The notes beneath the pieces were generated by a model. It was not told the DNA's origin and made no database searches. It saw only the letters and a list, made by a program, of their open reading frames with translations. Positions 36,840 through 64,000 of a DNA stretch of 64,000 bases are shown in pieces (the first letter of the stretch is position 1; every line of letters starts with the position of its first letter). The position numbers and the translations under genes are program-made. Source of the DNA: Candidatus Omnitrophota bacterium (lineage in GTDB: Bacteria > Omnitrophota > Omnitrophia > Omnitrophales > Aquincolibacteriaceae); NCBI GenBank assembly GCA_043803685.1, contig JAZDJU010000037.1:91746-155745 (forward strand), read 5' to 3'.

Positions 36840-37886
36840 TCATTGACGGAAAATTTCGGCAAGGATATCTTCCGTATTCCGGGTAATGGCCCATCCGGGA
36901 TAGTGACGGGAGAACTTGGACACATCGCTAACCCACCAAATATGATCTCCGACCCTGTTTTTTTCAATATAGGTCGTCTTCATTTTCCGTCCCGAGATCT
37001 TCTCACACAGCTGGATGGATTCCATCATGGAACAGTGGCTAAAACGGCTTCCGCCCATATTGTAAACCTCGCCACATCGTGGGTTCTGGTAGAAATGATA
37101 AAAGCCGTTCACGAGATCATGGCTATGGATGTTGTCCCTGACCTGTTTGCCTTTGTAACCGAAGATCTGGTACTCCCGGCCCAGCACCGCGCATTTCATG
37201 AGATACGCAAGGTATCCGTGCAATTCCGCCGCGGCATGGCGAGGACCGGTCAGGCACCCGCACCGGAAACAACCGGTTTTGATCCCGAAATAGCGTCCGT
37301 ATTCCTGGACCATAATATCCGCGGCAACCTTCGAAGCGCCGAAGACCGAATGCGTGCATTGATCGAGAGACAGGCTTTCATCGATCCCGTTCTTGAAGTA
37401 AGGGTGCCCGGGATCGAGCTCCCACCGTGTTTCCAGTTCTCGGAGAGGAAGACGGTTGGGATGATCTCCGTAGACTTTGTTGGTCGAGACAAAAATAAAA
37501 ACGGCCTGGGGGCAGTGCTCACGCGTCGCTTCCAGAAGATTCATCGTGCCCACGGCATTAATCGCAAAATCCGTCTGCGGCTCCCGGGCGGCCCAGTCGT
37601 GGCTCGGCTGCGCCGCGCTATGGATCACCAGATCAACGTCCCGGCCATACTCCGCAAAAAGGCGGGAAACGGCTCCGACATCACGAATATCGATCTCATA
37701 GTTCCTGAAATGAGCGCATTCGTCCTCAAGTTCCCTGAGGCTCCCTCGAGTAGAACCTTCTTCTCCGAAAAAATATTTCCGCATGTCATTGTCGATCCCG
37801 ATAACACGGAACCCTTTCGCGTGAAAGAACCGCACCGATTCGGAACCGATAAGACCGGCCGCTCCTGTGATCAATACGCTTTTCAT
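36840..37886 (-). CDS. Extended-SDR NAD-dependent sugar epimerase/dehydratase (CDP-paratose/tyvelose 2-epimerase-like)
   Basis: [19 protein letters not shown], and [10 protein letters not shown]...HG typical of that subfamily. The YxxxK position reads FGASK. Start set at MKSVLITG. Confidence 0.8.
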
Positions 37887-38010
37887 TGATATTTCCTTTC
37901 GAACATATAATTTCGAAAATGTTTTCTTACTATCCACCGTCGCAATTATAACAAAGAAAGCATCTCTGCGTGCTTTGGAAATAAAGGAACAAGGGCCCAA
38001 AGCTCTTGGG

Positions 38011-38847
38011 TCAGGGTCGCGTCCAAAAATATTTATTGGAGACCGCAAGATAAAAGCATCGCACAAGCTCGTAAGGGAGGAACAGAGCGTAGACCCGGAT
38101 CTTCCCCAAGAGATCTTCGTTCTTTTGGATCATCCAATGACGGTTGCGAAAACACAAATATTGCCGGAATTTCCCTCCTGTATCGGAGCTGTTGCCGGCA
38201 TGACAACACGTCATGTCCGGACAGAATTGGGCTTGCCATCCCGCCCGACTCGCCCTCCAGGCAAGGTCCACATCCTCAACAAGAAAGAAAAAACGTTCGT
38301 CAAAATAGCCTGTTTTTTCCCGGATCGCGTTGAGCATGGCCCTTCGATAAAAAGCAGCCGCGGAACAAGGACCGATGATCTTTTTTCCCGCAAGCCCGGG
38401 TCCATCCTTGGGTTTTCCTTGATTCAGATCATGGAACCTGCGACAGGCCGACAAATGGATCCCTTGGGAATAGACCGTTTTGCCATCCGCGCTCAGAACA
38501 TTCGGCTGGATCATCCCGACATCCTCGGAAAATCCTTTCCGTATTCGCTCGAACTCCGCAAGAAAACCGTCTCCAAGCACCACGTCATTGTCCAGGGCCA
38601 GAACCCAATCCCCTGAAGAACCTTCAATCCCCTGATTCCTGGCCTTGCTAGCGCCGAAATTCTTCGGGTTTTCGATCAAGTTCACGCCGGGAAAGTGCGT
38701 CTTGATGATCTCGCGCGTTTGATCCCGGGAATCGTTGTCGACCACCACGATCTCGATGTCCCGAGCGTCTTGGCGCATTATAGAATCCAGGCATGCCCGG
38801 ATAGAAGCTTGGCTGTTGAAGGTGATCACTACGATGGAGAGTCGCAT
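38011..38847 (-). CDS. GT2-family glycosyltransferase
   Basis: [40 protein letters not shown] (DxD). Confidence 0.88.
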
Positions 38848-40202
38848 TGGCCGGCGAAAACTCTATGAAGGTTCACTTTGATGTTTTCCAGATCCTCGGC
38901 GCTGAGGTCCTGGGTCCTCACAATACATTTTCTGTTGCCGTCATAGTCCTCCCAGTTGTCGGAAACCAACCATCCCTTTTCCACGGCATCGTTAAAATAG
39001 ACCGTTCCGGGAAATGGCACGGCAAATGAAAACTGAACCGAGTCAGGCTCCACCGATCGCGCAAAATCAATCGTACTCTGGATCGTCTGTCTTGTTTCTC
39101 CTGGAAGACCAACGCAGAACGTCAAATGAACTTTAATCCCCAGGCGTTTGGAGATCCCGATCATGGAACGGGCTTTCTCTAGATCCAGATTCTTCCCGCA
39201 CGACCGTCGGACCTCTTCATCCGCTGATTCGATGCCATACTTGACGGCGTAGACACCCGCGCGGGACATAAGCTCCAACAGCGCTTCATCCATCCTATCC
39301 GCGCGGGTCATCGCTCCCCAAGGAACATTCAATTTTCGTCTGAGGATCTCCTCGCAAATATTGACAACGTGCTCGCGGTCCCCATTGAAAGTTTCGTCAT
39401 CAAAATAGACCGATTTAAAATTAAAATGCCGGATCAGGTGCTCCATTTCATCAACGACGTCCAAAAAATTCCGTTTCCTGTACCCGCTCCCTTTATAGAG
39501 CGTCTGAGGAAGAAGGCAAAAGGAACATCGAAACAAACAGCCGCGACTGGCCAGCATCTGAACGCTCGGGCCTGGCAGTCCTGCGAAACCATCGTTGTAC
39601 TTATAGATGAGAGGCGCCGTTCTCTTGGGCCATGGCAAAACATCCAGATCATTAATGCACCCCCGGCGATCGCTCACAAAGATCTGCTCCCCTGCGCGAT
39701 AAGCCAATCCGGCTACATCGTCCAGTCCATGGCCTCGCTCAAGAGCCTCCACCAACTCGACCGCCGAACGTTCATACTCTCCGATGATCACATAATCGAT
39801 GGTAGGGTGTTCCGTTAAGATCTTTGCCGCAAACTCACCGGCATGCGCCCCGCACAACCCGATATGGACATTCTTCATCGCTTGCCGAAGTGCCGCAATG
39901 ATCCTTATATCATTTTTGAATGACGGCGCAGAGGTCTCGATCAGAACAAGCCCCGGATCGAACTCCCGGATCCTTTCAAGACAAAGAGGCTCGCTGATCT
40001 GCTCAGCGATCGCATCGATCAGTTTTACGGATTTCCCTTCTTTTTCTAATAAGGCGGCGGTATAAGCGAGAAAAAACGGAAAGGGGATATAGAGAAGACG
40101 CCCGTCTACCGCAGGCTTCGAAGTGAACGGCCAACGGGATCCAGCCCTGACCCCCAAACGTCCATCCTTAAACCATGGAAGATTTACGAGGGCCGTCTTC
40201 AT
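38829..40202 (-). CDS. B12-binding-domain radical SAM protein
   Basis: MKTALVNLPW..., cobalamin-domain-like N-terminus, ASRGCLFRCSFC. Start set at MKTAL, 1 nt after the upstream stop. The track's N-terminal extension is an out-of-frame read of the neighbouring repeats. Confidence 0.88.
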   Translation of the reverse strand: MKTALVNLPWFKDGRLGVRAGSRWPFTSKPAVDGRLLYIPFPFFLAYTAALLEKEGKSVKLIDAIAEQISEPLCLERIREFDPGLVLIETSAPSFKNDIRIIAALRQAMKNVHIGLCGAHAGEFAAKILTEHPTIDYVIIGEYERSAVELVEALERGHGLDDVAGLAYRAGEQIFVSDRRGCINDLDVLPWPKRTAPLIYKYNDGFAGLPGPSVQMLASRGCLFRCSFCLLPQTLYKGSGYRKRNFLDVVDEMEHLIRHFNFKSVYFDDETFNGDREHVVNICEEILRRKLNVPWGAMTRADRMDEALLELMSRAGVYAVKYGIESADEEVRRSCGKNLDLEKARSMIGISKRLGIKVHLTFCVGLPGETRQTIQSTIDFARSVEPDSVQFSFAVPFPGTVYFNDAVEKGWLVSDNWEDYDGNRKCIVRTQDLSAEDLENIKVNLHRVFAGQCDSPS

Positions 40203-40203
40203 C

Positions 40204-40866
40204 TTACTTGTTGAGATCGAGATGATTCTGAATTCGCTCGAAGAACTCCTTGATCTGATGAATACCCTGACTGATGTCCTTGGAATCACAGCTGATCTGT
40301 TCCGACGCTTGATAGATACTCTCGAACTGGTCCGGCGGAACCAGCTTAAGTTTGATCTCTTCCAACTGATCAAGCAGAACAAGTCTTTGCCTGATCTCTC
40401 CCAGCTGATCGAGCGGAACAAGCTTTTGTTTGATCTCTTCCAACCGATCAAGCGGAACAAGCTTTTGTTTGATCTCTTCCAACCGATCAAGCGCTACGAG
40501 CTTTTGCTTGATCTCTTCCAACCGATCGAGCGCCACGAGCCTTTGCTTGATCTCTTCCAACCGATCGAGCGCTACGAGCTTTTGCTTGATCTCTGCTAAC
40601 CGATCGAGCTGAACAAGTTTTTGATTGACCTCCTCCATTTTTTGACCCTGATCAAACATCATTTGCGCGAGATTGCCAAAAACCCTGATAACAACCGCGC
40701 AAAGAGAGCTTCCCACCATGATGAGGAAGCCGCTCACGAGCGACTCATGCCCGTTCGCCTTAAAAAAGATCCAATACGCGCCGACGAGAACGCCCAGTGC
40801 GGCAATCGCCCATGCATAAAGGCCCAAAACAAATACCGTAGGAATTTTTTTAGTTTTCATCGACAT
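40204..40866 (-). CDS. Membrane-anchored protein with about 7-8 tandem 13-residue repeats (LVALDRLEEIKQK)
   Basis: Two N-terminal TM helices, then a periodic, predicted-helical repeat array. Overlaps both flanking genes' boundaries. Confidence 0.75.
   Translation of the reverse strand: MSMKTKKIPTVFVLGLYAWAIAALGVLVGAYWIFFKANGHESLVSGFLIMVGSSLCAVVIRVFGNLAQMMFDQGQKMEEVNQKLVQLDRLAEIKQKLVALDRLEEIKQRLVALDRLEEIKQKLVALDRLEEIKQKLVPLDRLEEIKQKLVPLDQLGEIRQRLVLLDQLEEIKLKLVPPDQFESIYQASEQISCDSKDISQGIHQIKEFFERIQNHLDLNK
40338..40622. repeat. 39 bp in-frame tandem repeat, about 7 copies
   Basis: Unit cttttgtttgatctcttccaaccgatcaagcggaacaag with point variants. Confidence 0.85.
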
Positions 40867-43800
40867 TGTCCTTTTTGTTGATGTTCCGTTCGACTATAGC
40901 TTGAGAACTCTTGATCCGATCGATCAGATCGGACGATCGCATCAGATCCAACGATCGAAACTTTCCATCATCTAACCATGCTTTGATCGTTTGAGTAAGT
41001 TTCAAAAAAAACGGGTTAAGATGCGGATGCTCCCTTTCCAGCAACCCGATCCAGTCAGGACGTTCCCTGACAAGACCCATCAGCTTTTCCAGCAAAACAT
41101 CGTCGTGCGTGTTATAAACGGAGATCAGGAGATGTTTATAGAGCAATCGTTGAAACTCCGTCTCCCCAAACCTGTCGATGATCCAGCGGTTAAGCGCAAG
41201 GATCAAAGCAAATAAATTCAGGGAAAAGCTTTCCTTCGGAGAAAGCAGGCTGGATAGGGCGTTTCTCTTCCCGGCATAACGATAAAAGAACGTCAGATCG
41301 ATCAAGGCCAGCCAGGGTGACAACCTGGGCTCCTTCTTCGCGCCACTCACATCCGTATCGCGAAACATAAAATGTTCCAGATCCATTAAAGAGTGATGTA
41401 TCGCCAAAAAGAAGTCCAGATAAAGGAGTGCTTCCCGATGGTTCTCCAGATCCTCATCAAGATAGCGGTTGGCTAAGCCCACATTGTCCTTCATTTTCAG
41501 GGAAAAATTTTCCGGATCTAAAAAGAACTTTTGTTCATCATAATATTCGCGACGCCAGTTCCAGAAGGTTTTAAAAAGCGAGAAAATATCATCTCGCTTT
41601 AAGTGATGCGCGATCGCCCCGGCTTCATATCCCAGCACTTGTCCCGTTCCCATAAGACGCCGGCTCAGATTCACGTCCTCATAATTGTTCTTGAGCGTCT
41701 CATCATAAAAGCCTACATCCAGAACTACCTGACGACGCAATACGGTGTTGGCGCCAAACAAGAACTCAGGGACTTTGTTTTCTGGTTCCCAATACTGTTT
41801 CATGTGAACTGCGCGCCACTCGTCGAATACGGAAGAAGTCTTGCTCTCCAGCAACTTGCCTCCCATACCGCAAATGTTCGGGTCGTCAAACCTGCTCATC
41901 AAACGCGAAAGCCAGTCATGATCCGCAACGCAATCCGCATCCAGAGACGCGACAAACTCTGTGTTCATATTCTTAAGAGCCGTATTTCTGGCAGCAGCGA
42001 GACCCTTGTTAGTCTCATGGCGGAACAATCGCACGCCATAAGAGGACGCAATGTCACAAGTTCTGTCCGTCGACCCGTCATCCACCACGGCCACCTCTAC
42101 CACAGGATACGTTTGCCTGAAAACAGCCTCCAGACAGGCCGAGAGTGTTTTTTCTGCATTGTAGCAGGGGATATACAACCCCACTCGTTTTAGCGGCAGA
42201 GCCATGCCCGAGAAAACCCATTTGCCGTCTCGATTGATCGCCACGCCGTTGCAACCCTCGAGGGATCCGCCGGACTGAAGACGGAAAAGCACATTCAATA
42301 ATATTTGCTCGCCTTCTCCGGTGATAATAAAGTCCGCGAATTTCTGCAACCCATGCGGCAATAGAAGGTCACGATCATCCTGGGTTAAATTGTAACAACA
42401 GGTTCCTCCCAGAAGAATCTTCACCTCAGGATATCTGCTCTTTACTCTCTTGATGATCTCCAGAGTAAATAATGCGGAGGTTTTTTGGACTGAAAAACAG
42501 ATCACATCGGGAGTTACCGCAAGGATCCGATCCACACATTGCTCATAGACCTGTTCCGTGATGAACGGTAATTGATAAAAGCTGTCCTCTGAACACCACC
42601 GGTCTCTGTTATGGCTATCCCAATAAGTCTTATGATCGCCAGCCACCTCATGATAGACCATGATGTTTAAGTCAAGAACGCTCGCCTCACACCCATTGGC
42701 GTTGAGATAGGCCAGCCCCAAGGAAGGCCTTTCAACGCCGAAAGGACAAGGGCATTGGACGAGAGCTATTTTCATTATGCCGGGCCTCGCATTCTCGAGC
42801 CCTGCGTCAACAATGGAACTGCTGAAAAGTTTTCTCTTTTGCGAATAGTTGCTCTCAAGGTCGAAGTCGTCCCGATAAGAACACCACTGCAGACAAGGTT
42901 TGCTGCATTGGCGTATCAACTTTCGAAGATCCCTCGCGTTCGCCGAATACCAGAGATCTTTCAGGCTGTCTTTTTTCACATCCCCGAACGTCGCCTCATG
43001 GCTATTCTGGTTCACGCAAAAATAAAGCTTCCCCTCCTGAACCACTTGAATGCGATTGTATCCGGCATAACAAGGCCTCCCGGTGATCTTTGTCCGCCCC
43101 TGAAAATACTTTTTGATCGATTCCAGATTTTCGATCGCATTGGCAACAAGATCAAAATTGCACTCGTTCATTTTCTTAAATTGAATGATAGCATCGATGG
43201 AATCCTCCAGGAGCTTCAGCCTTGCTGGCGGTATACAGACCCCCGAATTCATTTCCGCCTTTTCCTGGTCCGTATTATCTCCCACCACGGGTTGAAAGAT
43301 CACGCTGGATATCTTTAAGCTTCGGCATAATTCGATGACATCCATAAGTTCGCCAGCATTTTGATCCATGATCGTACAGACGCAACAGATCGAGGGCGAA
43401 TACCTCCCTCTTTTCTCTTTCATTGCATTGATCAACTTCACATTGGCGATGATCTTTTCCAGATAATTCTGGCCCCGGATCTTCGAAAAAGATTCCTCCG
43501 TCGCCGCATCGATCGACACGCTCAAGTTGCTCAGATTCGCTTCGAACATTTTTTCAACGATCTTTTCGGACATGATCGTGCCGTTCGTTACCACCGTAAT
43601 GGAGGAGAATCCGCAATCCGCCGCAAAAGAGACCATCTCGAATAACCGCGGTTCCAGAAAAGGCTCCCCCCCGATCAAGATCAGCGCAGGGACCTTCATT
43701 TCCGCGCCTTCTTTAATAAGTTTCTTGATCGTCGAAATATCCAGATCCACCGGGCGATTCTGGGCCTTGAAAGACTCCTCCCTTTCGTGCATGCTGCACA

Positions 43801-43936
43801 TCGTGCACCTTAAATTACAACGGAAGGTGAAATTGATCTGAAGGGCATCTGCGGGAACAAGGGGATAATCGATCTTCCGGGAAAGCCGGAAAAATGAATT
43901 CCTTTCAAGCAATCGTTCAAACCTCTCCTTATCCAT
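40850..43936 (-). CDS. Multidomain fusion: radical SAM/SPASM + cobalamin-binding-like domain (no SAM core) + GT2 glycosyltransferase + helical C-terminal domain
   Basis: FRCNLRCTMCSMHE and CYAGYN...CSKPCLQWCSYR (aa 1-375). MKIALVQCPCPFG...ITGEGE (about aa 388-575). YIPCYNAEKTL, VVDDGSTDRT, LDADCV (about aa 582-800). 1028 aa in total. Confidence 0.85.
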   Translation of the reverse strand: MDKERFERLLERNSFFRLSRKIDYPLVPADALQINFTFRCNLRCTMCSMHEREESFKAQNRPVDLDISTIKKLIKEGAEMKVPALILIGGEPFLEPRLFEMVSFAADCGFSSITVVTNGTIMSEKIVEKMFEANLSNLSVSIDAATEESFSKIRGQNYLEKIIANVKLINAMKEKRGRYSPSICCVCTIMDQNAGELMDVIELCRSLKISSVIFQPVVGDNTDQEKAEMNSGVCIPPARLKLLEDSIDAIIQFKKMNECNFDLVANAIENLESIKKYFQGRTKITGRPCYAGYNRIQVVQEGKLYFCVNQNSHEATFGDVKKDSLKDLWYSANARDLRKLIRQCSKPCLQWCSYRDDFDLESNYSQKRKLFSSSIVDAGLENARPGIMKIALVQCPCPFGVERPSLGLAYLNANGCEASVLDLNIMVYHEVAGDHKTYWDSHNRDRWCSEDSFYQLPFITEQVYEQCVDRILAVTPDVICFSVQKTSALFTLEIIKRVKSRYPEVKILLGGTCCYNLTQDDRDLLLPHGLQKFADFIITGEGEQILLNVLFRLQSGGSLEGCNGVAINRDGKWVFSGMALPLKRVGLYIPCYNAEKTLSACLEAVFRQTYPVVEVAVVDDGSTDRTCDIASSYGVRLFRHETNKGLAAARNTALKNMNTEFVASLDADCVADHDWLSRLMSRFDDPNICGMGGKLLESKTSSVFDEWRAVHMKQYWEPENKVPEFLFGANTVLRRQVVLDVGFYDETLKNNYEDVNLSRRLMGTGQVLGYEAGAIAHHLKRDDIFSLFKTFWNWRREYYDEQKFFLDPENFSLKMKDNVGLANRYLDEDLENHREALLYLDFFLAIHHSLMDLEHFMFRDTDVSGAKKEPRLSPWLALIDLTFFYRYAGKRNALSSLLSPKESFSLNLFALILALNRWIIDRFGETEFQRLLYKHLLISVYNTHDDVLLEKLMGLVRERPDWIGLLEREHPHLNPFFLKLTQTIKAWLDDGKFRSLDLMRSSDLIDRIKSSQAIVERNINKKDNVDEN

Positions 43937-43990
43937 TTTTCCTTTTTGAGCCTGTTGTATCGCCGCTGGATTCCCGGATGACGATCCTCA
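42822..43990. repeat. Segmental duplication, copy A (about 90 percent identical by eye to 46744..47912)
   Basis: Constant offset of 3922 nt in the stretches compared. Includes a remnant of the wzt-like 3' end. Confidence 0.8.
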
Positions 43991-44142
43991 GCTGCAGTAG
44001 ACGACGAATTATTCGTCCTCCCTATCGTAAAACCTTTGCACACAAGACCCGGGGCCTTGCGCTCTTGAGCCCTAGGCTCATCCCCACCCGTGCGGTGAGA
44101 AATTCCCGCCAAGTACAATTCTTTGGCTGATCCGCAACACAC

Positions 44143-46516: not shown

Positions 46517-46739
46517 GACGAATCCTCCTGCTTAAGCACGCGAGCCGCCCTCTCATTACATTCCTTCAGGATCGTACAACAGGCCTGAAAGCAAGGGACG
46601 TGTTCGTTGAGCGTTTGCCGCAATTTCAAATACTCACTAGCCCGAAAATCCTTGAGACGCACCCCTTTTTATATTCATCCAAGACATAGTCTTCTGGAGC
46701 TGCGGACATTGCAGAGCATCACCGTTCGCATCAACGAAC
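46517..46739 (-). pseudogene. Degraded 3' fragment of a SPASM-domain gene
   Basis: Three frames together read FVDANGDALQCPQLQKT / YVLDEYKKG / VRLKDFRASEYLKLRQTLNEHVPCFQACCTILKEC. Two frameshifts are needed, and no radical-SAM core lies upstream. Confidence 0.6.
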
Positions 46740-56011: not shown

Positions 56012-56852
56012 AGCGACTTCGAAAATCCGGTCGCATCATTTCATGGTATTCCTGTTCCCAGTGATAACGCCAGTGCGGGTATCGTTTTGACAATTCATGC
56101 TCCGAAATGGCCGGATGAAAACTGAACTCCCAACTGCCGCTCTTTCTTGTCTTTTGGAACCTTTGGAGGACCTCTCCCAGAGGGCCCCCCGCGTTCGACG
56201 CGTTGCAATAATGGTCAGGATGTATCATCCGATATTTCTTCAACAATCGTCCCTGGTATAAACACAGACCATTGAGCAACATATTACCTAAAAACTTGTC
56301 CGGATGCGCTGAAAATTGCAGGGCATTGAACCTCAGCGGCGTATAGGGATATCGGATCCTCGCAACATGATATTTCAAAGCATGCTTAATAACGATGTCC
56401 AGAATGCCCGGCACCATATGCAACTGCTGGTGGCTGTCGATGCGAGTGATCCGGACCCCCTGTCGCTGGACTTTTTCGAACTGAGCTCCGATCTCCTGAT
56501 CGATCTCCCTCAGACGGATCTTTCCCAAAATGTAAGCTCTCAGAAACTGAGAATAATCAGCGTAAAAAAAACCGTTTTTATCCACCAAGGAAGGAACTTC
56601 CCTCCCGGAAAGAAGGGGCGTGAGCTCCACAAGGGTTAGATGCAACCCCACATCCAGATCAGGATGTTGTTTGATAAGGCTGACCGCATCATCAAAGGCT
56701 TCCCCGTTCGCCATAAGAGAAACGCCGTCCAGATTCCCCTTTTGATGGATCCCGATCATGCCGGCATTGATCTCCCGGGATAGTCCGAAATCATCTCCGG
56801 TGATGAAAAAACTCTTCGCTCTATTATTTCCGGAGGATATGATCAAGAACAC
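55968..56852 (-). CDS. YdjC/ChbG/HpnK-family carbohydrate deacetylase
   Basis: ITGDDFGLSREINAGMIGIHQKGNLDGVSLMANG and RIDSHQQLHM. Confidence 0.82.
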   Translation of the reverse strand: MFLIISSGNNRAKSFFITGDDFGLSREINAGMIGIHQKGNLDGVSLMANGEAFDDAVSLIKQHPDLDVGLHLTLVELTPLLSGREVPSLVDKNGFFYADYSQFLRAYILGKIRLREIDQEIGAQFEKVQRQGVRITRIDSHQQLHMVPGILDIVIKHALKYHVARIRYPYTPLRFNALQFSAHPDKFLGNMLLNGLCLYQGRLLKKYRMIHPDHYCNASNAGGPLGEVLQRFQKTRKSGSWEFSFHPAISEHELSKRYPHWRYHWEQEYHEMMRPDFRSRFEGSHSKNHAENSF

Positions 56853-58239
56853 TCCAGGCGCTTTTTATCATTATTTTGAGTTGCTGGAATGAACGGATCC
56901 TGCGCACATACGAGGCCATAATGGCCGGTCGAAGGTAGAATTCGCGTAATAGCTTTTTCCGGTATGCGATCAAAGATTCCTTCGTCATCCCATGGGGCAC
57001 AAACACAATATCAAAGCAGGTCATTTTATCATAATCGTTCTCAAACCGGCCGAACCCCTTGATCGCATGAAACAGCGCGGCGCCAGGGTACGGAGTAAAG
57101 AACGTTACGCTGACATCATCCAGCGGTTGGCTTTTAATAAAATCGATCGTTTCCTGAACCGTTTCCGGAGTTTCCAGCGGATTCCCCAATAGAAGAAAAC
57201 CTTTTGTCAGGATCCCTGCCTCCCGGGTTTCCCTGAGAGCTCTTTTGATGACCTCAAGGCTGATCCCCTTCTGGTAAACATCCAGGATCTGCTGATTGGC
57301 GCTTTCGATCCCGTAAGATAACTGCCAGCATCCGCTGTCTTTCGCCATCCGCAGACTTTCCTGATCAACGCTATCAACACGAACAGAAGCCGCCCAAGTC
57401 ATATTCAGCCGGGCCTCTTTGAGAAGACGGCAAAAGTCAATCAGTCGTCGCTTGAGTGAAAAAAACTCGTCGTCCTGGAACATGACATGCCGGATCCCGT
57501 AATCTCTTTTTAATGTTTTCAGCATAGCAACCATATATTCAGCGCTGTGAAAACTCATGCGATTGCCGAATACAGAGCGATCGCAGAAAGTGCACTGTCC
57601 CGGGCAACCGCGAGAGGTCATGAGCGATACAGCAGGCAGACGGTAAACATGCTGGATCGGCAAGGAATAATGCTTGTCCAGCGCCGGCAAGAGATCAAAT
57701 GCGGGTTGAGGAAGCGCGTCAAGGTCTTTGATCCTGGAACGCGTGCCGGACAACAAAACCTTGGGAGGATCTCTGAAAACAAGCCCTTTAACCTGAGCGA
57801 TATCTGTCTTTTCCTCTAACGCCTGGATCACCTCGCGTAGCGTTTCTTCCCCTTCTCCAACAACCCCTATATCAAAGGGCGCATGCTCTTGAAGCGTTTC
57901 GATGGGCAGCGCGCTGACATGAGCTCCTCCGATAAAAATGATCACGGACGGTTCCAGGGATTTAATTTTACCGGCAAGAGTCGCCACTCCTCGTATCTGG
58001 GACGTGGTGGCGCTCAGCGCGACATATCCGGGCTTTTCGAGTTTGACCTGGGCCAGGATCTCTGGATCGTCATAATGGAGGGCCTGGGCATCGATAATAC
58101 CCACAGGTATTCCTTCATTTCGTAAAAAAGCAGCCAGGGAGCACAACCCCGTCGGGATCTCCACTCCCCCGGCAGGAGAAAGAAACCCGTAACGCTGATC
58201 CAGGGTGGAAGGGGAATTGATCAAAAGGACTTTTTTCAT
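56824..58239 (-). CDS. B12-binding-domain radical SAM protein
   Basis: MKKVLLINSP..., VVGEGEETL, TSRGCPGQCTFCD. Start set at MKKVLL. Confidence 0.88.
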   Translation of the reverse strand: MKKVLLINSPSTLDQRYGFLSPAGGVEIPTGLCSLAAFLRNEGIPVGIIDAQALHYDDPEILAQVKLEKPGYVALSATTSQIRGVATLAGKIKSLEPSVIIFIGGAHVSALPIETLQEHAPFDIGVVGEGEETLREVIQALEEKTDIAQVKGLVFRDPPKVLLSGTRSRIKDLDALPQPAFDLLPALDKHYSLPIQHVYRLPAVSLMTSRGCPGQCTFCDRSVFGNRMSFHSAEYMVAMLKTLKRDYGIRHVMFQDDEFFSLKRRLIDFCRLLKEARLNMTWAASVRVDSVDQESLRMAKDSGCWQLSYGIESANQQILDVYQKGISLEVIKRALRETREAGILTKGFLLLGNPLETPETVQETIDFIKSQPLDDVSVTFFTPYPGAALFHAIKGFGRFENDYDKMTCFDIVFVPHGMTKESLIAYRKKLLREFYLRPAIMASYVRRIRSFQQLKIMIKSAWSVLDHILRK

Positions 58240-58428
58240 AGTTTTACGCATCAGCACATGATGAGCGGATACAAATAACCCCTATCAAATAAATTGGTTC
58301 GATTAAGAGGCTCGTGTCCCGACGCCGAGATCCTATCCACACCCCGGGTCTAGGAGCTTCTCATTTTTTGAATATGCGTCTTCTCTGGCCTTAGCGCATT
58401 CGGCAAGGCAACCCTTCAAAGACGCCCT

Positions 58429-59193
58429 CTACGTTCTCATTTCCTGTTTCTCCCGCCGCCAGAAAAAGAAACGCGTAAGCTCGTCTAATATCTTAACGAT
58501 CACTTTAAAACTCGAAAGCGTCGAGCGCCCTCTCGTCCTGGGATGATAGTCGCAGGGAAATTGCACGATCTTACGCCCCGACATTCTCACCCGGGCCAAC
58601 ATCTCCACATTGATAAAAGACCCTTCAGAAGACAACCGGATCTCATTCAGAAAACTTCTCTTGAAAAGCTTAAATGAAAAATTTACGTCTTTTACACCCA
58701 AACGAAAAAGAAGTTCGATGAGACCATTGTAAATATAAGAATAAAAAAAACGCCGAACCCCCTCACCGCCCCGACTGGTCCTGTAGGCAGAAAAATAATC
58801 CGCGTCTTCGGCGTCGAGCATCGCGATCGCCTTAGCGATCTCTTTCAAGTCAAACGGCAAATCCGCGTCAAAATACAAGATCAGGTCTTTCGTCGCGGCA
58901 TTGAACCCTGTCCTCAAAGAACCCCCTAAGGTTCTATTCCTTTCATGATGAAGAACCTTGACCCTCCGGTCCGTTCCAGCTACCGCATCAAGCATTTCGC
59001 CCGAGCTGTCCGTGCTCGCATCATCCACCAAAATGATCTCATAGTCAGCACAGATCGACGGCACTGTTCTATTAATCGCCTTCAGAAGTGGCGCTATATT
59101 CTCCTCTTCGTTGAAGACGGGGATCACGATGGAAAGGCTATAGGGGTATAACAAAGCTTTGTCTCTCCCGACGGGATCCCTCAAAGGGATCAT
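58429..59193 (-). CDS. GT2 glycosyltransferase of the polyprenyl-phosphate sugar synthase type (DPM1/GtrB/ArnC-like)
   Basis: LSIVIPVFNEEENI, ILVDDASTDSS, YFDADLP. 254 aa. Confidence 0.82.
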   Translation of the reverse strand: MIPLRDPVGRDKALLYPYSLSIVIPVFNEEENIAPLLKAINRTVPSICADYEIILVDDASTDSSGEMLDAVAGTDRRVKVLHHERNRTLGGSLRTGFNAATKDLILYFDADLPFDLKEIAKAIAMLDAEDADYFSAYRTSRGGEGVRRFFYSYIYNGLIELLFRLGVKDVNFSFKLFKRSFLNEIRLSSEGSFINVEMLARVRMSGRKIVQFPCDYHPRTRGRSTLSSFKVIVKILDELTRFFFWRREKQEMRT

Positions 59194-59209: not shown

Positions 59210-59467
59210 CTATTTCTGAGCCATTGACCATTTAAACAAATGCGGGGTTTTCTTCGATCGCCCTTTAAGTTTTTTTGCTAGTAAGGTCACGGCCGGCCCA
59301 TTCTCAGTGTTTTCTTTGATGAGGACCTCCACGTCTGAAAATCCCGCATTATGGAATATTCGAGGGACGGCGTCCTCTAAAGCGCGGAACGCTTGACCTT
59401 CCATCCCATCTAAACAATAGCGGACATTTTCCAAAAACGTGTTCCCCCCGGTTTTTTCCCGCGACAT
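59210..59467 (-). CDS. Hypothetical 85 aa protein
   Basis: ORF tightly packed between two cluster genes. The tail HNAGFSDVEVLIKEN vaguely resembles the C-terminus of class I methyltransferases. Confidence 0.4.
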   Translation of the reverse strand: MSREKTGGNTFLENVRYCLDGMEGQAFRALEDAVPRIFHNAGFSDVEVLIKENTENGPAVTLLAKKLKGRSKKTPHLFKWSMAQK

Positions 59468-59501
59468 TCGACGTCACCCAAGCTAAGGATACAGCTCCTT
59501 T

Positions 59502-60995
59502 CTAAAGCAAAACGTCTTTCCCCTTTTTTTCACCCAAAGACAACGCGGACTCCACATCCAATGTCCCGCCAACTCGATCTCGGGCAAATTTATCGGGTAG
59601 CTGCTCCTGGAGCAACTTCAATCGCTGGACTCTGTGTCCGTAGGTATCACTATTATCTTTCGCACTCCAATCATGGAGATTATTTAACTGGATCCCATAG
59701 CGATCCTTCATCTCATAAAGCGGCGTATGAGGCTTTACCGTGCAAATGGCGGCATCGATCCCTGCCATGCACTCAGAATTCTTTTTAATAAAATCCAGAG
59801 TCTCCTGGAAATCACGTGATGATTCCATGGGATGCCCCACAACCCAGTTTGTGAGCGCGGAAATTCCCGCCGCGTGAGCATCCATAATATTCTTTTCCGC
59901 GTCTTGGATGTGGAACCCCTTATTCATAGCCTGCAGAACCTTGGGAGACGCGCTTTCTATCCCGAAACTCAGATACTCGCATCCCGCCTGCTTCATCCTT
60001 TCAAAGATATCCCTGGTCAATACGGAATTGACGGACGCGCTCCCCCCCCACCGCACACGGAGCTTCTTTTCAATAAGAAGCTGGCATAATTTTGTCAAGA
60101 AAGAGACGTTCAAAGTGATACTCGAATCATTGAAATGAAAAAAATCCGTCTTGTAACGCGCGATTTGGCGCTCCATCTCCTCCACAACACACGAGGCTTT
60201 TCTAGCTCTAAAGGTATACCGATCCATATAGGGATAATCACAAAAAGAACACCGAGAGGGGCAACCTCGGCTTGCCAGTATCGGTAAAAAATTCTTTTCC
60301 GTGTAGGCGAACTCTTTTAAAACTGAAAAATCCGGAAAAGGTAACGCGTCCAGATCGCAAATCAAAGGTCTTAGTTCATTGATTGTTAAATTCCCGTTCT
60401 CCTTGGCGATAACTCCCCGGCATCCCTCCAGGGAAGATCCCGAGGAAACCCGATTCACAACATCCAACATAATGTCCTCGCCTTCCCCGACGGCGACCAT
60501 GTCGATGACATCTAAAACGCGATGAATGGGGCTGTGGATATTGGCCACAGCATCATCACAGACATCGATATAAGACAGGACAAAGGGTCCTCCAAAAATG
60601 ATCTTTCTCGTCGCATCCAATTGCTTTATTTTTTTCGCCAAAATAACGCTTACGTCGACTGAGGTGTGATAGACCGTAAATCCAATAACCTGAGCGTTGC
60701 TTTTTAAAATTTCTTGGGCCCAGTCATTCAGAAGAGACTCACTCAAGAATTCAAGGTGGCTCAATAACCCGGCATCTTGCCATCCACTATTAATACCTCT
60801 GCTTGACCATAGCAAAGAAAAAGCATAGTCCCAATATTTCCTCATATCGAGAGGGACCTGATGAAAAAGACGTATGTTGAGGTCAAACGAATCAACGCTA
60901 TGGCCGTTTTTTTCAAGCACCGCCCTCAGGTAAGCAGGCCCCAGCATGGGCATACGCACATTAAACATGGGGCATTCAACAAGAGCTATTTTCAT
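59502..60995 (-). CDS. B12-binding-domain radical SAM protein
   Basis: MKIALVECPMFN...GPAYL, VGEGEDIML, ASRGCPSRCSFCD. Confidence 0.88.
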   Translation of the reverse strand: MKIALVECPMFNVRMPMLGPAYLRAVLEKNGHSVDSFDLNIRLFHQVPLDMRKYWDYAFSLLWSSRGINSGWQDAGLLSHLEFLSESLLNDWAQEILKSNAQVIGFTVYHTSVDVSVILAKKIKQLDATRKIIFGGPFVLSYIDVCDDAVANIHSPIHRVLDVIDMVAVGEGEDIMLDVVNRVSSGSSLEGCRGVIAKENGNLTINELRPLICDLDALPFPDFSVLKEFAYTEKNFLPILASRGCPSRCSFCDYPYMDRYTFRARKASCVVEEMERQIARYKTDFFHFNDSSITLNVSFLTKLCQLLIEKKLRVRWGGSASVNSVLTRDIFERMKQAGCEYLSFGIESASPKVLQAMNKGFHIQDAEKNIMDAHAAGISALTNWVVGHPMESSRDFQETLDFIKKNSECMAGIDAAICTVKPHTPLYEMKDRYGIQLNNLHDWSAKDNSDTYGHRVQRLKLLQEQLPDKFARDRVGGTLDVESALSLGEKKGKDVLL

Positions 60996-61142: not shown

Positions 61143-62555
61143 TCATTGCTGCCCTTGAAAAGTTTTGTGCTTGGGCTTATCTCCTAAACGCTCGATCGTC
61201 GCAAGGAACTCATCGTAACGGCGTTTCCTCACCTCGACGGTATTAGCTCCATCCTGAGACACCCAATTCCACCCATCCCCGGCAACAACACCGAATTTCT
61301 CCTTATGCCGGGCAAGAAGGCTTGCGTCTTTCAAGATAAAAGAATTCACCATGAGATTTTTTCTAAGGAGTTTGAAAAACCTGGTAATAAACTGCAGCGT
61401 CTGCTGAAAATCCTCTTCTCTTTCCGTCGGGAATCCCACGATCCAATTGGTGCAGACATCCATCCCCGCCCTATGGGCTTCCGTGATGACCCGCTGAACC
61501 TCAGAGATCGTAAAAGATTTATTCATGTCTTTTAAAATTTTAGGCGAGGCGCTCTCAATGCCAAAGTTCAAATAACAACATCCTGCCTGTTTGAGTTTTT
61601 TTAACATTTCCCGGTCAAGATTCCTGCCGACGCAGGCGCTCCCCCCCCACGTCAATCCGAGCTTCCCGCCGATCAGAAGATTGCAAAGCTTTAAAAGTTC
61701 CGATGAATTACCGTTGATCAACAGGTCATTGAATTCAAGAAATTCGGCCCCTTGTTCTTTGCGTAATTTCATCTCCTGAAAGATATTTGCGGCAGACCGG
61801 TAGCGGTAACGCCGCCACATCAGCGCATCATCACAGAAAACGCACCTGTTAACGCAGCCCCTGCTGCCCAAGATGGGCCATCGCCTATCATATTTATAGA
61901 CGGACGGAAAATCATGAAAATCCGGAAACGGCAAAATGTCCAGATTTTCTATTAAAGACCTCGGGCCGTTGCGAAGGATCTTGCCGTCTTCTGCCCTGAT
62001 CACGGTGCCGGGACAGCCCCTGAGGGACTCTTTGGCCTCCAGCCGTCTGGCAATGTCCAGTAATGTCTCCTCGCCTTCTCCCAACACGACGACATCGACC
62101 AACTGTCTCCCGACGTCATCTTTCATCTGTAATAAATGATCCGCATGCTCAATGCTATAACTCAAATGCAACGGCCCCCCGAAAACAATGGCCGGAGCAG
62201 TAGCTCTCTTTCTTATTTCACGGGCCAACTTAAGGCTGCATATCAAAGACGAACTCTGCACCGAAAATCCAAGAATATCCGGATCGTCTCGAAGAAGCAT
62301 CTCAGCCCATTGGGCATAATGGCTTTCCGAAAGCACCTTCTGCTGGGAAAAATAATCTTGATTCATCCATTGAAAAACATAGCTGAACTCCCAAAATCGC
62401 TTGTGGGCTTCTTCGGCATGGGCATAAAGATCGGCGTTAAAGTCAAAAACACGGACAGCCTGACCCTGCTCCCTAAGAAATGCGGCCAAATATCCTAACG
62501 CCAAAGGAGGCCTATCAATCCCAAAAGCAGGGCACTGGACAAGAGTAATTTTCAT
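61143..62555 (-). CDS. B12-binding-domain radical SAM protein
   Basis: MKITLVQCPAFG...LGYL, LGEGEETLL, GSRGCVNRCVFCD. Confidence 0.88.
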   Translation of the reverse strand: MKITLVQCPAFGIDRPPLALGYLAAFLREQGQAVRVFDFNADLYAHAEEAHKRFWEFSYVFQWMNQDYFSQQKVLSESHYAQWAEMLLRDDPDILGFSVQSSSLICSLKLAREIRKRATAPAIVFGGPLHLSYSIEHADHLLQMKDDVGRQLVDVVVLGEGEETLLDIARRLEAKESLRGCPGTVIRAEDGKILRNGPRSLIENLDILPFPDFHDFPSVYKYDRRWPILGSRGCVNRCVFCDDALMWRRYRYRSAANIFQEMKLRKEQGAEFLEFNDLLINGNSSELLKLCNLLIGGKLGLTWGGSACVGRNLDREMLKKLKQAGCCYLNFGIESASPKILKDMNKSFTISEVQRVITEAHRAGMDVCTNWIVGFPTEREEDFQQTLQFITRFFKLLRKNLMVNSFILKDASLLARHKEKFGVVAGDGWNWVSQDGANTVEVRKRRYDEFLATIERLGDKPKHKTFQGQQ

Positions 62556-62660
62556 AGGACCTTCCCCAGTTTAGTGGACGGTTTGTTCAGATAATATCGT
62601 CTGTCTTTCGTACTCAAAAGGACTCGGATTCCCGATTGTTGAATGAGCCCCTTCAGAAAA

Positions 62661-64000
62661 TCATTCGCCTATCTTACTCGCGTTGGGATCCGGAGAACAT
62701 AGCTCCAGACCCGCAAGCGCGCCTTTAAGTGTTTCATAATCAGCATCCGAAAACGCAGTGATTGCCTTGGTGAAGTATTCCTTGGCCTTGGCCGGGTCCT
62801 TCATCCCCAGATAACAATAACCGATGTTCGTAAGAAGATCCCCGTACTCTTTCAAACGATCTTCCTTCGAGTAATCCGCGAGCCCCTGATTTAAATATGA
62901 AAGGGCCCGGCCATAAGAACGTTTGCTCAGATAAAGATACCCCAACCCCGAATAGGCCGCAGACGCTAGTGGGTCTGAAGCATCCATCGCTTTCAATGCT
63001 TCATTAAAATAATGCTCCGCCTTAGAAAAACAATCTTTGGAAACTGTTGCGTCACGAACCATAAGCTCAACATAACTACTGGCTAAACCAACGCATGCCG
63101 TAGCATAGGTATGGCCCCTGGCCTCTTTGCCCGCCAAGAACTCCTCCAATAATTTCGTTGAAACGCCATAGCGTCCCTCCCTAAAGGCAGCCTGAGCTCT
63201 CTGCATCCGCACATCACCAGACGCTTCTTTTATCCATTGGCTCTCAACGGCTGCCGCTGAACCGGGCTTTTTGTTCTTGGCGTAAATATAAATTTTGCTC
63301 CCATCCGACGGAACGACAAGAGTCGCCATCCGATCGTAAAAACGGCTTACTTGAGGATAAAACTCGCTCAGAGGAAGCGCCATCACAAGGAAGTCGCAAT
63401 CCGAAATCCCTTCCGAGGCATAATAATCGGGCTTATTTCCCAATGTACGGACAGTCAATGGAAGTTGACGCCGCGAGATGAAGCTTTTCATCCCCGGCTC
63501 ATTGACAATAACAAAATTATCCGCGCGCTCAAACTCGCTCGGATTCATCTGCTCCTTTGGAAATGCGAAAAACCCGGTATTGCCAATATGGTAGATCCTG
63601 TTCGGAATGATATGGGCTTGCAATGCTCTAAAGATTTCTTCATAGACCTTATCAAAACGCGGTCTCTTTTTCGAATAAACATATATTCTGCTTTTATCCG
63701 AGGGAACGACAAGAGTGGCCGCCAGATCATAGAAAAGACACGCTTCCGGATAAAACTCTTCCAGAGGAAGCACCGTCACAAGAAGGTCGCACTGCAAAAC
63801 TCCATCCGAAGCGTCGTAATCAGGGATTTTCTTCAATGTACGGACCATCAATGGAAGCTGATGTTGCAAAATGTAGCTTTTCATCCCCCACTCATTGACT
63901 ACAATGAAATTATCCGTGAATCGAAACGTGGCCGGAGTGATCAATCCGTTCGGATACAAATCATGGCCGGTAATGCCCACATGATGAATACCCCCCGAAG
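62661..64000 (-). CDS. Protein with a duplicated unknown N-terminal domain plus C-terminal TPR region (frame open to the window edge; 5' end possibly outside)
   Basis: Two collinear ~140 aa copies (DNFIVVNEWGMKSYILQHQLPLMVRTL / DNFVIVNEPGMKSFISRRQLPLTVRTL ... ATLVVPSD.S.IY.Y). The track starts it at GTG 63980, but no stop occurs before position 64000. Confidence 0.65.
   Translation of the reverse strand, partial: SGGIHHVGITGHDLYPNGLITPATFRFTDNFIVVNEWGMKSYILQHQLPLMVRTLKKIPDYDASDGVLQCDLLVTVLPLEEFYPEACLFYDLAATLVVPSDKSRIYVYSKKRPRFDKVYEEIFRALQAHIIPNRIYHIGNTGFFAFPKEQMNPSEFERADNFVIVNEPGMKSFISRRQLPLTVRTLGNKPDYYASEGISDCDFLVMALPLSEFYPQVSRFYDRMATLVVPSDGSKIYIYAKNKKPGSAAAVESQWIKEASGDVRMQRAQAAFREGRYGVSTKLLEEFLAGKEARGHTYATACVGLASSYVELMVRDATVSKDCFSKAEHYFNEALKAMDASDPLASAAYSGLGYLYLSKRSYGRALSYLNQGLADYSKEDRLKEYGDLLTNIGYCYLGMKDPAKAKEYFTKAITAFSDADYETLKGALAGLELCSPDPNASKIGE

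Follow-up and report, generated by a model that had tools for sequence, protein, structure and literature searches.

In a 64,000-nucleotide stretch of DNA from a Candidatus Omnitrophota bacterium (assembly GCA_043803685.1, contig JAZDJU010000037.1, positions 91,746 to 155,745 of the forward strand; hereafter the window), ten radical S-adenosylmethionine (rSAM) domains are encoded within a single minus-strand gene cluster that extends from position 36840 to the window edge. The cluster is probably a chromosomal, hypervariable surface-glycan locus of the ABC-transporter-dependent kind (Wzm/Wzt, O-antigen-like) in which sugar tailoring falls mainly to rSAM enzymes. To our knowledge, radical-SAM chemistry on carbohydrates comes almost exclusively from individual enzymes that belong to antibiotic or cofactor pathways. 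A conserved polysaccharide-export locus with more rSAM enzymes than glycosyltransferases, some of them fused, would extend radical chemistry to the surface polymers of anaerobic, mostly uncultured bacteria. A preliminary description of the window, made from the sequence and its open reading frames (ORFs), had not recognized the cluster as a described pathway, and this holds, as we found neither a curated family nor a paper that describes this cluster type.

Ten rSAM domains in one minus-strand cluster

ORFs are named here by the lower of their coordinates (Table 1). The ORF map gives a minus-strand series without a break from 36840 to the window edge and bears out the single-direction block reported before, with its many stop/start overlaps (38829/38847, 40202/40204, 40850/40866, 45470/45480, 47851/47858, 53649/53656, 54833/54836, 55968/56011, 56824/56852). 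In the earlier ORF list the last entry, 62661, needs revision: it has no stop codon as far as 63998 and stays open to the window edge.

The preliminary description counted ten rSAM catalytic domains, four of a cobalamin type and six of a SPASM type. All ten are found by Pfam, with PF04055 matching ORFs 38829, 40850, 44143, 45470, 46740, 53649, 54833, 56824, 59502, and 61143 at 68-101 bits (cut-off 29.5), and each of the ten encodes exactly one CX3CX2C motif. The cobalamin type is confirmed by PF02310 (cut-off 32.1 bits) in 38829 (43 bits), 56824 (79 bits), and 61143 (37 bits), with 59502 marginally under at 31.4 bits. With a predicted B12-binding domain preceding the rSAM core, all four qualify as class B (cobalamin-binding) enzymes. 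For the SPASM type, PF13186 is matched in 40850, 46740, 53649, and 54833 and is not matched in 44143 and 45470. The C-terminal cysteines of these last two are arranged like those of 40850, 46740, and 54833, with two spaced cysteines followed by CX3CX3C (residues 281, 299, 330, 334, and 338 in 44143). The C-terminal cysteines number five or six and end in CX3CX3C in five of the six SPASM-type proteins; 53649 ends in CX2CX3C, and all fall short of the canonical seven.

Save for one pair, the rSAM paralogues are 25-38% identical, and their density is therefore not a product of recent tandem amplification. By a rough binomial estimate that assumes 2-4% of genes to encode rSAM proteins, the chance of ten among 21 neighboring genes is ~1e-9 to 1e-12.

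None of the ten reaches a curated NCBIfam cut-off, whether of a RiPP (a peptide made by the ribosome and modified after translation) family or of any other. Scores for models of sugar-acting and related enzymes are 118 and 97 bits for AprD4 (NF033070, cut-off 500), 68 for BlsE (TIGR04466, cut-off 400), and 88 for N_Twi_rSAM (NF033640, cut-off 170). The closest solved structure to 56824 is AprD4 (6fd2, 3e-22), with TokK and OxsB also matched; those closest to 53649 are SkfB, BlsE, Tes, MoaA, PqqE, and BtrN. The domain types, B12-binding with rSAM and rSAM with an auxiliary-cluster domain, are those of the sugar-acting enzymes AprD4, BtrN, BlsE, DesII, and the class B methylases of the GenK/Fom3 type. 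Those enzymes, however, work singly on small-molecule antibiotic or nucleoside precursors, whereas here up to ten are encoded in a polymer-export locus, some fused to glycosyltransferases.

Related loci encode glycan assembly and export

The preliminary description had proposed looking for the gene set in other genomes, and it does co-occur there. Syntenic clusters were found in at least eight other Omnitrophota genomes or metagenome contigs: L001/L082, L003, L004, L005, L010, L014, L030, and L085/L086 (L and P numbers denote related loci and proteins). L003, L004, L010, and L014 are Omnitrophota metagenome-assembled genomes (MAGs) and L085/L086 are JGI contigs. Three proteins of the window cluster match NCBI proteins from a Candidatus Omnitrophota MAG at 100% identity. 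Orthologues are 42-92% identical in L001/L082, L003, L004, L005, L010, L014, and L085, with the highest values in L001/L082, a Logan contig (72-92%), and 63-74% in L004. L030 has a like architecture and like gene types at 26-49% identity, and its Wzt-like 781-aa protein matches only the nucleotide-binding domain (NBD).

Machinery for making and exporting a polymer is found in these relatives. Pfam places Wzm (PF01061) immediately upstream of a ~910-aa Wzt in L003 and L010, as precomputed Pfam annotation does in L085/L086, and ORFs of 260-296 aa occupy the Wzm place, by position and length only, in L005, L014, and L030. L010 also encodes a WecA/MraY-type primer (PF00953) and a GT4 glycosyltransferase, L004 a carbamoyltransferase and a DegT aminotransferase, and L003 a GT-C-type glycosyltransferase of the PMT_2 family. 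L083 has a shorter Wzt with a Wzt_C domain together with a family 2 glycosyltransferase (GT2), GT4, Wzy_C, and WecG, and other relatives have carbamoyltransferases, a CysN-like protein, and PMT_2. The Wzm and the primer that the preliminary description had sought are thus present in relatives (Wzm in L003, L010, and L085/L086; PF00953 in L010) and absent from the window.

Several rSAM proteins of relatives are fusions. GT2+rSAM (642-644 aa), B12-rSAM+GT2 (943 aa), and B12-rSAM+YdjC fusions (~760 aa; 16 of the 120 best homologues of 56824) tie the rSAM enzymes to sugar chemistry. Others join a B12-rSAM to a SPASM-rSAM (916 aa) or a SPASM-rSAM to a methyltransferase (P0003, P0004). The closest paralogue of 59502 and 61143 in a relative is itself fused to a GT2; 61143 is 42% identical to the B12-rSAM half of this fusion in L001.

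A B12-rSAM profile was used to fetch 80 genome loci, 11 of which have at least five rSAM genes and 25 at least three, among them loci of a DPANN archaeon, a Myxococcota MAG, and Elusimicrobia. Unrelated phyla, too, have loci in which at least five rSAM genes lie within no more than 21 kb (L017, Archaeon GW2011_AR15; L046, Myxococcota; L020; L011; L009), and rSAM-dense loci recur widely in uncultured lineages.

A Wzt-type ATPase with a tail of three repeats

Besides the rSAM enzymes, the preliminary description listed three GT2 domains, an extended short-chain dehydrogenase/reductase (SDR), a YdjC deacetylase, and a Wzt/TagH-type NBD, all of which were recovered by Pfam, NCBIfam, and phmmer. 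Of its two SGNH hydrolases, 52121 scores over the Lipase_GDSL_2 cut-off and 50656 matches weakly, under it.

The NBD of 47851 is nearest to A. aeolicus Wzt in sequence (1e-61, phmmer) and in fold (1e-21, TM-score to target up to 0.84, Foldseek). TagH and Wzt are its top NCBIfam models, under their equivalog cut-offs, and the domain belongs to the Wzt/TagH subfamily. The tail that follows (residues 235-918) has no sequence match in Pfam or the PDB, and Pfam finds no Wzt_C (PF14524) in it. Profile comparison divides it into three repeats that are homologous to one another (hhalign probability 99.9) and that a blastp self-comparison missed. AlphaFold models have a mean pLDDT of 76.8 for the full-length protein and 78.8 for the tail, which is folded as three all-beta domains. 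Because the NBD dominated the Foldseek matches of the full model, the tail was modelled and searched alone. It then matches the galactose-mutarotase-like beta-supersandwich of GH94 phosphorylases, beta-galactosidases, a galactosaminidase, galactose mutarotase, and YidC-P1. As modelled, the tail is a carbohydrate-binding-type fold of three beta-supersandwich repeats and not a canonical Wzt_C.

A word-based search of limited sensitivity, which may understate the family, found the tail in only 11 protein clusters. Both of those whose neighborhoods were fetched, P0131 (L001/L082) and P0136 (L085/L086), lie in rSAM-rich loci, as do the long Wzt orthologues (~900-930 aa) of L003, L004, L005, L010, and L014.

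The locus compares with the Wzm/Wzt O-antigen or glycan pathway (A. aeolicus WzmWzt, PDB 6amx, 7k2t, 8dku; E. coli O9a type) in its closest NBD, in an all-beta C-terminal extension on the ATPase, as in cap-reading Wzt proteins, and in relatives that have an upstream Wzm and variously a WecA-type primer, GT2/GT4, WecG, and Wzy_C. It departs from that pathway in having three ~220-aa beta-supersandwich repeats instead of Wzt_C, no adjacent Wzm in the window, and ten rSAM enzymes; we found no described locus of that kind in the literature.

A module of GT2, B12-rSAM, and deacetylase

Within the cluster, a GT2 (58429), a B12-rSAM (56824), and a YdjC-family protein (55968) are encoded in this order, and the association is conserved. 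The module of L089/L090 reads [tetratricopeptide-repeat (TPR) protein with SGNH domain]-[GT2+methyltransferase]-[B12-rSAM+YdjC]-[PMT_2 GT-C], L083 and L087/L088 share its core from GT2+methyltransferase to GT-C, and that of L084 reads YfhO-GT2-methyltransferase-B12-rSAM-YdjC. SGNH+TPR proteins adjoin the module in L089 and lie inside the locus, non-adjacent, in L087. That the B12-rSAM and YdjC are fused in relatives speaks for successive reactions on a single deacetylated amino sugar.

The family of 56824 has 950 homologues at E<=1e-20; among the 120 matches listed, 16 are fused to YdjC and five to a methyltransferase. In the five fusion-bearing loci examined, which represent three distinct contexts, the family member is flanked by GT2+methyltransferase and a ~540-aa GT-C. 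The hosts of this large, uncharacterised family include Omnitrophota, Elusimicrobiota, Patescibacteria, Chlamydiota, Brocadia, and others. NCBI names the B12-rSAM+YdjC fusions 'ChbG/HpnK family deacetylase'.

The best models for GT2 58429 are ArnC (PRK10714, 76 bits against a cut-off of 529; 66 bits for the L082 fusion), PgfS, and PpgS-type models. Its likeness to ArnC is at the subfamily level only. For YdjC 55968 the top model is HpnK (TIGR03473, cut-off 232.6), with 159 bits, or 196 bits for the fused relative P0015. HpnJ (TIGR03471, cut-off 577.6) is the top NCBIfam model for both 38829 (260 bits) and 56824 (187 bits). The former is the more HpnJ-like of the two, and BchE and ApyD nearly equal HpnJ for 56824.

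By analogy, the conserved sub-module of GT2 (with or without methyltransferase), B12-rSAM, YdjC, and GT-C resembles both HpnI/J/K and Arn-type logic. Systems that decorate polymers or lipids with a lipid-linked sugar combine a GT2 synthase with a GT-C, as in ArnC/ArnD/ArnT, GtrB/GtrA/GtrC, the Pgf system of S. mutans, and PpgS with Rv3779 in M. tuberculosis; ArnD is a de-acylase that acts on the lipid-linked sugar. Shared with them are a GT2 of the ArnC/PgfS/PpgS type, an ArnD-like de-acylase step, an adjacent PMT_2 or YfhO GT-C in relatives, and a homologue of the GT-C C-terminus at the window edge. Unlike them, the route here includes a B12-rSAM and a methyltransferase, no flippase was recognized, and the scores are far under the equivalog cut-offs.

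With the hopanoid side-chain pathway, in which the HpnI/K/J chemistry has been described (PMC13459092), the module shares its three enzyme types, its gene order, and HpnJ and HpnK as best curated models. These likenesses could also mean that the locus makes no polymer at all and is a membrane-lipid or glycolipid head-group pathway, whose rSAM enzymes remodel a lipid-borne sugar, as in the conversion of the glucosamine of bacteriohopanetetrol into a cyclitol ether, and whose Wzt-type ATPase flips or exports the glycolipid. In favor of it, a B12-rSAM model for ladderane-type lipids gives a score as well, the GT2 belongs to the lipid-phosphate-sugar type, and rSAM enzymes feature prominently in lipid modification (PMC13459092). 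We consider this unlikely. The HpnJ and HpnK scores are just a third to two-thirds of the cut-offs, BchE and ApyD come near HpnJ for 56824, and neither stand-alone GT2 has a match to the HpnI model in NCBIfam. In a genome survey, HpnG, HpnI, and HpnJ domains were confined to genomes with SHC and HpnH (10.1101/2025.07.29.667474), whereas neither SHC nor HpnH, nor any other hopanoid gene, was seen among the window ORFs scanned. In relatives, moreover, the polymer machinery (Wzm/Wzt, several glycosyltransferases, Wzy_C, WecG) is present, and a methyltransferase and a GT-C accompany the module within polysaccharide loci, so that the carrier is probably polyprenyl phosphate or a glycan rather than a hopanoid. 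This suggests that HpnJ/HpnK-type chemistry extends beyond hopanoids. A lipid pathway overlaps in any case with the surface-glycan reading, which already includes a lipid-linked sugar intermediate.

Probable glycan rather than peptide substrates

SPASM and class B rSAM enzymes are typical RiPP maturases, and several of both per operon are known from multi-rSAM RiPP clusters (proteusins/polytheonamide PoyB/C/D, sactipeptides, ranthipeptides). A proteusin- or sactipeptide-like cluster, its product maybe glycosylated, its precursor encoded outside the window or missed, and its ABC ATPase exporting a peptide, is therefore an explanation to be weighed. Among the named NCBIfam models, 59502 and 61143 score best with ApyD and TIGR03975, 'RiPP maturation radical SAM C-methyltransferase' (158 and 134 bits against a cut-off of 281.85 for the latter), and models of sactipeptide and ranthipeptide maturases give scores for several SPASM proteins. 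In a metagenome survey of biosynthetic gene clusters (BGCs), RiPP clusters of Omnitrophota and other MAGs were among those expressed, with rSAM proteins treated as RiPP-tailoring enzymes (PMC9902471).

The matches to maturase models are, however, all far under the curated cut-offs, and none of the ten rSAM proteins reaches the cut-off of a RiPP maturase family. The Cys triad begins at residue 18-46 of the six SPASM-type proteins (residue 40 in 46740 if the start is 47858), which leaves no room for a RiPP recognition element (RRE), as the preliminary description had argued, and Pfam finds no PqqD/RRE family in any cluster protein. That description had also reported peptides of at most nine aa, apart from a rejected 110-aa ORF, in seven of eleven gaps. 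With GTG and TTG starts, the gaps do contain ORFs of 20-51 aa (for example 46507..46662 and 58244..58342). These are not conserved, and where they match relatives, the match lies in the end of a flanking gene or in the duplicated relic described below. When the small ORFs of the window cluster and 19 related loci were compared all against all, no shared family included the window. The sole cross-contig pair, a weak one, joins L003 19329-19589 and L004 12546-12773 (~76-87 aa, 26% identical, E 9e-6); the L003 ORF adjoins a carbamoyltransferase gene, and the window lacks it. The 85-aa ORF 59210 was considered as a precursor and rejected, being the C-terminal relic of a methyltransferase.

Without a conserved small ORF and without room for an RRE, the glycan reading is favored over a RiPP. 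The ATPase, too, is of the Wzt type by sequence and fold and not a peptide exporter with a C39 peptidase, relatives encode Wzm, a WecA-type primer, GT4, GT-C, DegT, and carbamoyltransferase, and their rSAM domains are fused to GT2 and YdjC. Unlike multi-rSAM RiPP clusters, the locus has a glycan assembly and export context, and no precursor, RRE, or peptidase was found in it. We therefore regard a RiPP cluster as very improbable. The substrates proposed in the preliminary description, namely sugars, a glycan, or a polyprenyl-linked intermediate in preference to a ribosomal peptide, are supported, and none of the findings that it had named as contrary turned up.

Rearrangement of the window copy

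The copy in the window has been recently rearranged, with a single duplication, a chimeric fusion, a truncated gene, and relics at three places. The chimera is the 1028-aa product of 40850. Its residues 1-371 are 81% identical to the rSAM product of 46740, residues 388-577 are the B12-binding half alone of a class B rSAM enzyme, and a GT2 comes next. At this position L001, the closest relative, has the 943-aa B12-rSAM-GT2 fusion, whose rSAM core (198-494) is missing from the window copy. At the DNA level, 42825-43124 repeats 46747-47046 with 87% identity. The relic at 43937-44142 matches the Wzt/rSAM junction of relatives (L001 7384-7551 and L004 7444-7575, tblastn). A 110-aa ORF that sits on this duplicated junction DNA is rejected as a gene, as it had been before.

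The preliminary description recognized one pseudogene fragment, whereas tblastn and database searches show three relics (43937-44142, 58258-58428, and 59210-59467). Two of them are separate methyltransferase relics, one with motif I after a premature stop in a GT2+methyltransferase gene (58258-58428) and the other from another class-I enzyme (59210-59467). GT2 58429 is 80% identical to the L082 GT2+methyltransferase fusion, which aligns by tblastn past the stop at 58429, with KLLDPGCG opposite the motif I sequence ILDLGCG. The 85-aa ORF 59210 has only two matches among 1.84 billion representatives and was not found in the relatives; its residues 8-66 align with 272-330 of the 330-aa P0142 (Methyltransf_9/25).

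Between its TPR gene and its GT2 the window has gained 61143, 59502, and a methyltransferase relic relative to L082, and relative to L082/L001 one B12-rSAM has been swapped for two SPASM-type rSAMs. These gains and the swap indicate that the locus evolves by cassette exchange. This fits the strain-variable or hypervariable 25-kb polysaccharide cassettes reported for Omnitrophota in a preprint (10.64898/2026.06.07.730766). The GC content falls from ~0.55 to ~0.49 over the cluster (~0.46-0.52 from ~32 kb on), and tRNAs are encoded on the minus strand at 34907-34993 and 28149-28219, the former flanked by two TPR genes a short way downstream of the cluster. A GC drop with a flanking tRNA is the pattern typical of an exchangeable island.

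The number of rSAM genes may accordingly owe something to decay or assembly, the cluster being a rearranging, partly pseudogenised island, or the MAG a chimera of co-occurring strains, with a functional set as small as in relatives. The duplicated N-terminus and deleted rSAM core of the 1028-aa ORF, the three relics, and the strain variation of Omnitrophota polysaccharide cassettes all point that way. So do the relatives, whose loci have five to seven rSAMs within the spans fetched (21 kb or less), with at least seven on the 16-kb contig of the closest one, where 59502 and 61143 are missing between the TPR gene and the GT2. We nevertheless think it rather improbable that the count is inflated in this manner. 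The ten rSAM ORFs are intact, full length, and keep CX3CX2C; the paralogues, except for the one pair, are divergent enough to be old and distinct and not recent junk; the rearrangements are in frame; and an NCBI record (P0001) carries the same 1028-aa product at 100% identity. Inflation would in any case alter the rSAM count and not the nature of the system.

A proposed route and its weight

In the surface-glycan reading, GT2 enzymes, whose domains are present in the cluster, would build a polyprenyl-linked glycan at the cytoplasmic face. The six SPASM/twitch-type and four B12-type rSAM enzymes may act on sugar units or on intermediates linked to nucleotides or lipids. AprD4, BtrN, BlsE, and GenK/Fom3-type enzymes suggest, by analogy, C-methylation, deoxygenation or dehydration, oxidation, epimerisation, and ring rearrangement as candidate reactions. 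In a side branch, the ArnC/PgfS-like GT2 would make a polyprenyl-phosphate-linked N-acetyl-hexosamine that YdjC deacetylates, and the B12-rSAM would remodel the deacetylated sugar by C-methylation or ring rearrangement, possibly with a further methylation. A periplasmic GT-C could then move it onto the polymer. Such a branch would pair decoration of the Arn/Gtr/Pgf type with HpnI/K/J-type chemistry; what is shown of it is the gene association and the fusions. Export would be by Wzm/Wzt, with the three beta-supersandwich repeats binding the modified glycan in place of a cap-reading Wzt_C domain, and the SGNH+TPR proteins may add or remove acyl groups outside the cytoplasm.

A wider proposal can be made only tentatively, and we hold it to be possible rather than probable. 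It is that Omnitrophota, along with Elusimicrobiota, Patescibacteria, and others through the B12-rSAM+YdjC family, bear surface polysaccharides rebuilt by a battery of rSAM enzymes. Among the steps, a polyprenyl-phosphate-linked amino sugar would be deacetylated and be rearranged or C-methylated by radical chemistry in the manner of HpnK/HpnJ, a GT-C would transfer it outside the cytoplasm, and the triple beta-supersandwich tail of Wzt would read the chain.

Several observations weigh against the surface-glycan reading or parts of it. The evidence for it is entirely genomic. This copy is partly decayed, and its relics and chimera make it doubtful whether every one of the ten rSAM domains works here. 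Because no rSAM protein reaches a curated family cut-off, every rSAM reaction is assigned by analogy, and the named models that score highest for 59502 and 61143, TIGR03975 and ApyD, describe RiPP C-methyltransferases and are matched with about half the cut-off score. No Wzm, WecA, or GT-C membrane domain was found in the window by tblastn, save for the GT-C C-terminal homology at its edge, and in the subclade of the window, L001/L082, and L004, SGNH+TPR genes stand upstream of Wzt in the place of Wzm. The structural matches of the Wzt tail are modest, with E values from 3e-7 to 1e-3, TM-scores to target of at most 0.57, and an alignment of 11 sequences behind the model.

If the wider proposal is true, the locus would represent an undescribed class of glycan tailoring, in which C-methyl, deoxy, or carbocyclic units are radical-installed in a Wzm/Wzt-exported polymer, and a B12-rSAM family with at least ~1000 detected members would gain its first function. 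The B12-rSAM+YdjC fusions, the GT2+rSAM fusions, and the three-repeat Wzt tail are testable candidates. The findings also bear on the use of curated Hpn models and on 'RiPP' or 'ladderane' BGC calls in metagenome surveys. Surface structures are of interest in Omnitrophota, a phylum with members believed to depend on hosts or to live as episymbionts.

Genes of the cluster and its surroundings

Table 1. Genes and relics of the cluster, from its downstream end to the window edge.
Coordinates	Strand	Feature	Evidence and remarks
36840..38066	-	Extended-SDR NAD-dependent sugar epimerase/dehydratase	PF01370 1.5e-40, PF16363 7e-28; longest ORF
38011..38847	-	GT2 glycosyltransferase	PF00535 1.2e-28
38829..40202	-	B12-binding rSAM enzyme	PF02310 + PF04055; CX3CX2C at residue 318
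40204..40866	-	Membrane-anchored coiled-coil protein, 220 aa	Two predicted transmembrane helices, then ~nine 13-aa repeats
40850..43936	-	Chimeric 1028-aa protein	rSAM/SPASM 1-371, B12-binding half 388-577, GT2 584-1028 (Pfam)
43937..44142	-	Non-coding relic	Duplicate of Wzt 3' end / SPASM-rSAM 5' end junction
44143..45480	-	rSAM enzyme, Cys-rich C-terminus	PF04055 2e-24; CX3CX2C at residue 43
45470..46516	-	rSAM enzyme, Cys-rich C-terminus	PF04055 5e-24; CX3CX2C at residue 36
46740..47963	-	rSAM/SPASM enzyme	PF04055 + PF13186
47851..50607	-	Wzt-type ABC ATPase, 918 aa	PF00005; NBD ~14-241 + three all-beta repeats of ~220 aa
50656..52086	-	SGNH/GDSL-like (weak) + TPR protein	Lipase_GDSL_2 25 bits (under cut-off); TPR families
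52121..53656	-	SGNH/GDSL + TPR protein	Lipase_GDSL_2 41 bits (over cut-off); TPR; one N-terminal hydrophobic helix
53649..54836	-	rSAM/SPASM enzyme	PF04055 1.4e-28, PF13186 7e-11
54833..56011	-	rSAM/SPASM enzyme	PF04055 + PF13186; L001 orthologue 92% identical
55968..56852	-	YdjC-family carbohydrate deacetylase, HpnK-like	PF04794 5.8e-54
56824..58257	-	B12-binding rSAM enzyme, partner of YdjC	PF02310 3e-22 + PF04055
58258..58428	-	Methyltransferase-domain relic	Domain fused to GT2 in relatives
58429..59193	-	GT2, polyprenyl-phosphate-sugar-synthase type (ArnC/PgfS-like)	PF00535 6.5e-31; truncated remnant of GT2+methyltransferase
59210..59467	-	85-aa ORF, class-I methyltransferase C-terminal relic	
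59502..60995	-	B12-binding rSAM enzyme, class B type	PF04055 8e-21; PF02310 31.4 bits (just under cut-off)
61143..62555	-	B12-binding rSAM enzyme, class B type	PF04055 + PF02310
62661..64000	-	Two ~130-aa domain copies, then TPR	TPR families; internal repeat with 393-nt spacing; open to window edge

The SDR encoded by 36840 scores under the RfbB and GalE equivalog cut-offs, and its true start is probably near 37886, since the Pfam domain begins only at residue 64. The adjoining GT2 38011 has orthologues at the same position in L003, L004, and L010. The B12-rSAM 38829 starts at M97 (40202) of a 553-aa ORF and is 53-69% identical to its orthologues in the same three loci. Between it and the chimera lies 40204, whose product has no match in Pfam or NCBIfam. 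A 39-nt tandem repeat in ~nine copies (40309-40659, minus strand) encodes its 13-aa coiled-coil repeats (LVALDRLEEIKQK). In L001, L003, L004, and L010, too, an orthologue of differing length lies between the GT2 fusion and the B12-rSAM. By analogy with the coiled coil of WbdD, a role as a spacer or 'ruler' is conceivable.

Among the other rSAM genes, 45470 has an orthologue in L002 (53% identity), and 46740 likely starts at 47858, overlapping the Wzt stop, with a 372-aa orthologue in L001 that is 80% identical. The products of 59502 and 61143 are 38% identical to each other, and both have orthologues in L002 and L006 (47-48% identity for 59502 and 57% for 61143). Of the two SGNH+TPR proteins, which are paralogues at 34% identity, 50656 has a lone N-terminal hydrophobic helix (residues 12-30) and 52121 has orthologues in L001 and L004.

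The duplicated N-terminal domain of 62661 is homologous to the C-terminal soluble region of PMT_2 proteins of L014 (439-716) and L087 (455-537). To judge by this homology, a GT-C (PMT_2)-TPR glycosyltransferase gene with its start beyond 64000 probably ends in this ORF, which would encode its C-terminal part.

An Rfam scan gave no cobalamin or SAM riboswitch, its sole matches being the two tRNAs, both outside the cluster. A promoter and terminator scan was uninformative: shuffled sequence had more promoter-like sites, and the number of terminator-like sites exceeded that of shuffled sequence by about two standard deviations.

The remainder of the window encodes housekeeping functions (ATP synthase, FtsK, PNPase, RibF, IF2, NusA, DnaX, and a lipid A acyltransferase). 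Among these genes, 26 kb from the cluster, an eleventh B12-binding rSAM protein of 546 aa is encoded on the plus strand (9055-10695). Just downstream of the cluster and adjoining two large TPR proteins, a 418-aa protein whose N-terminal methylation motif resembles that of type IV pilins (PF07963) is encoded on the minus strand (32272-33528). In L086, a set of type II secretion/type IV pilus genes lies upstream of the Wzm-Wzt genes.

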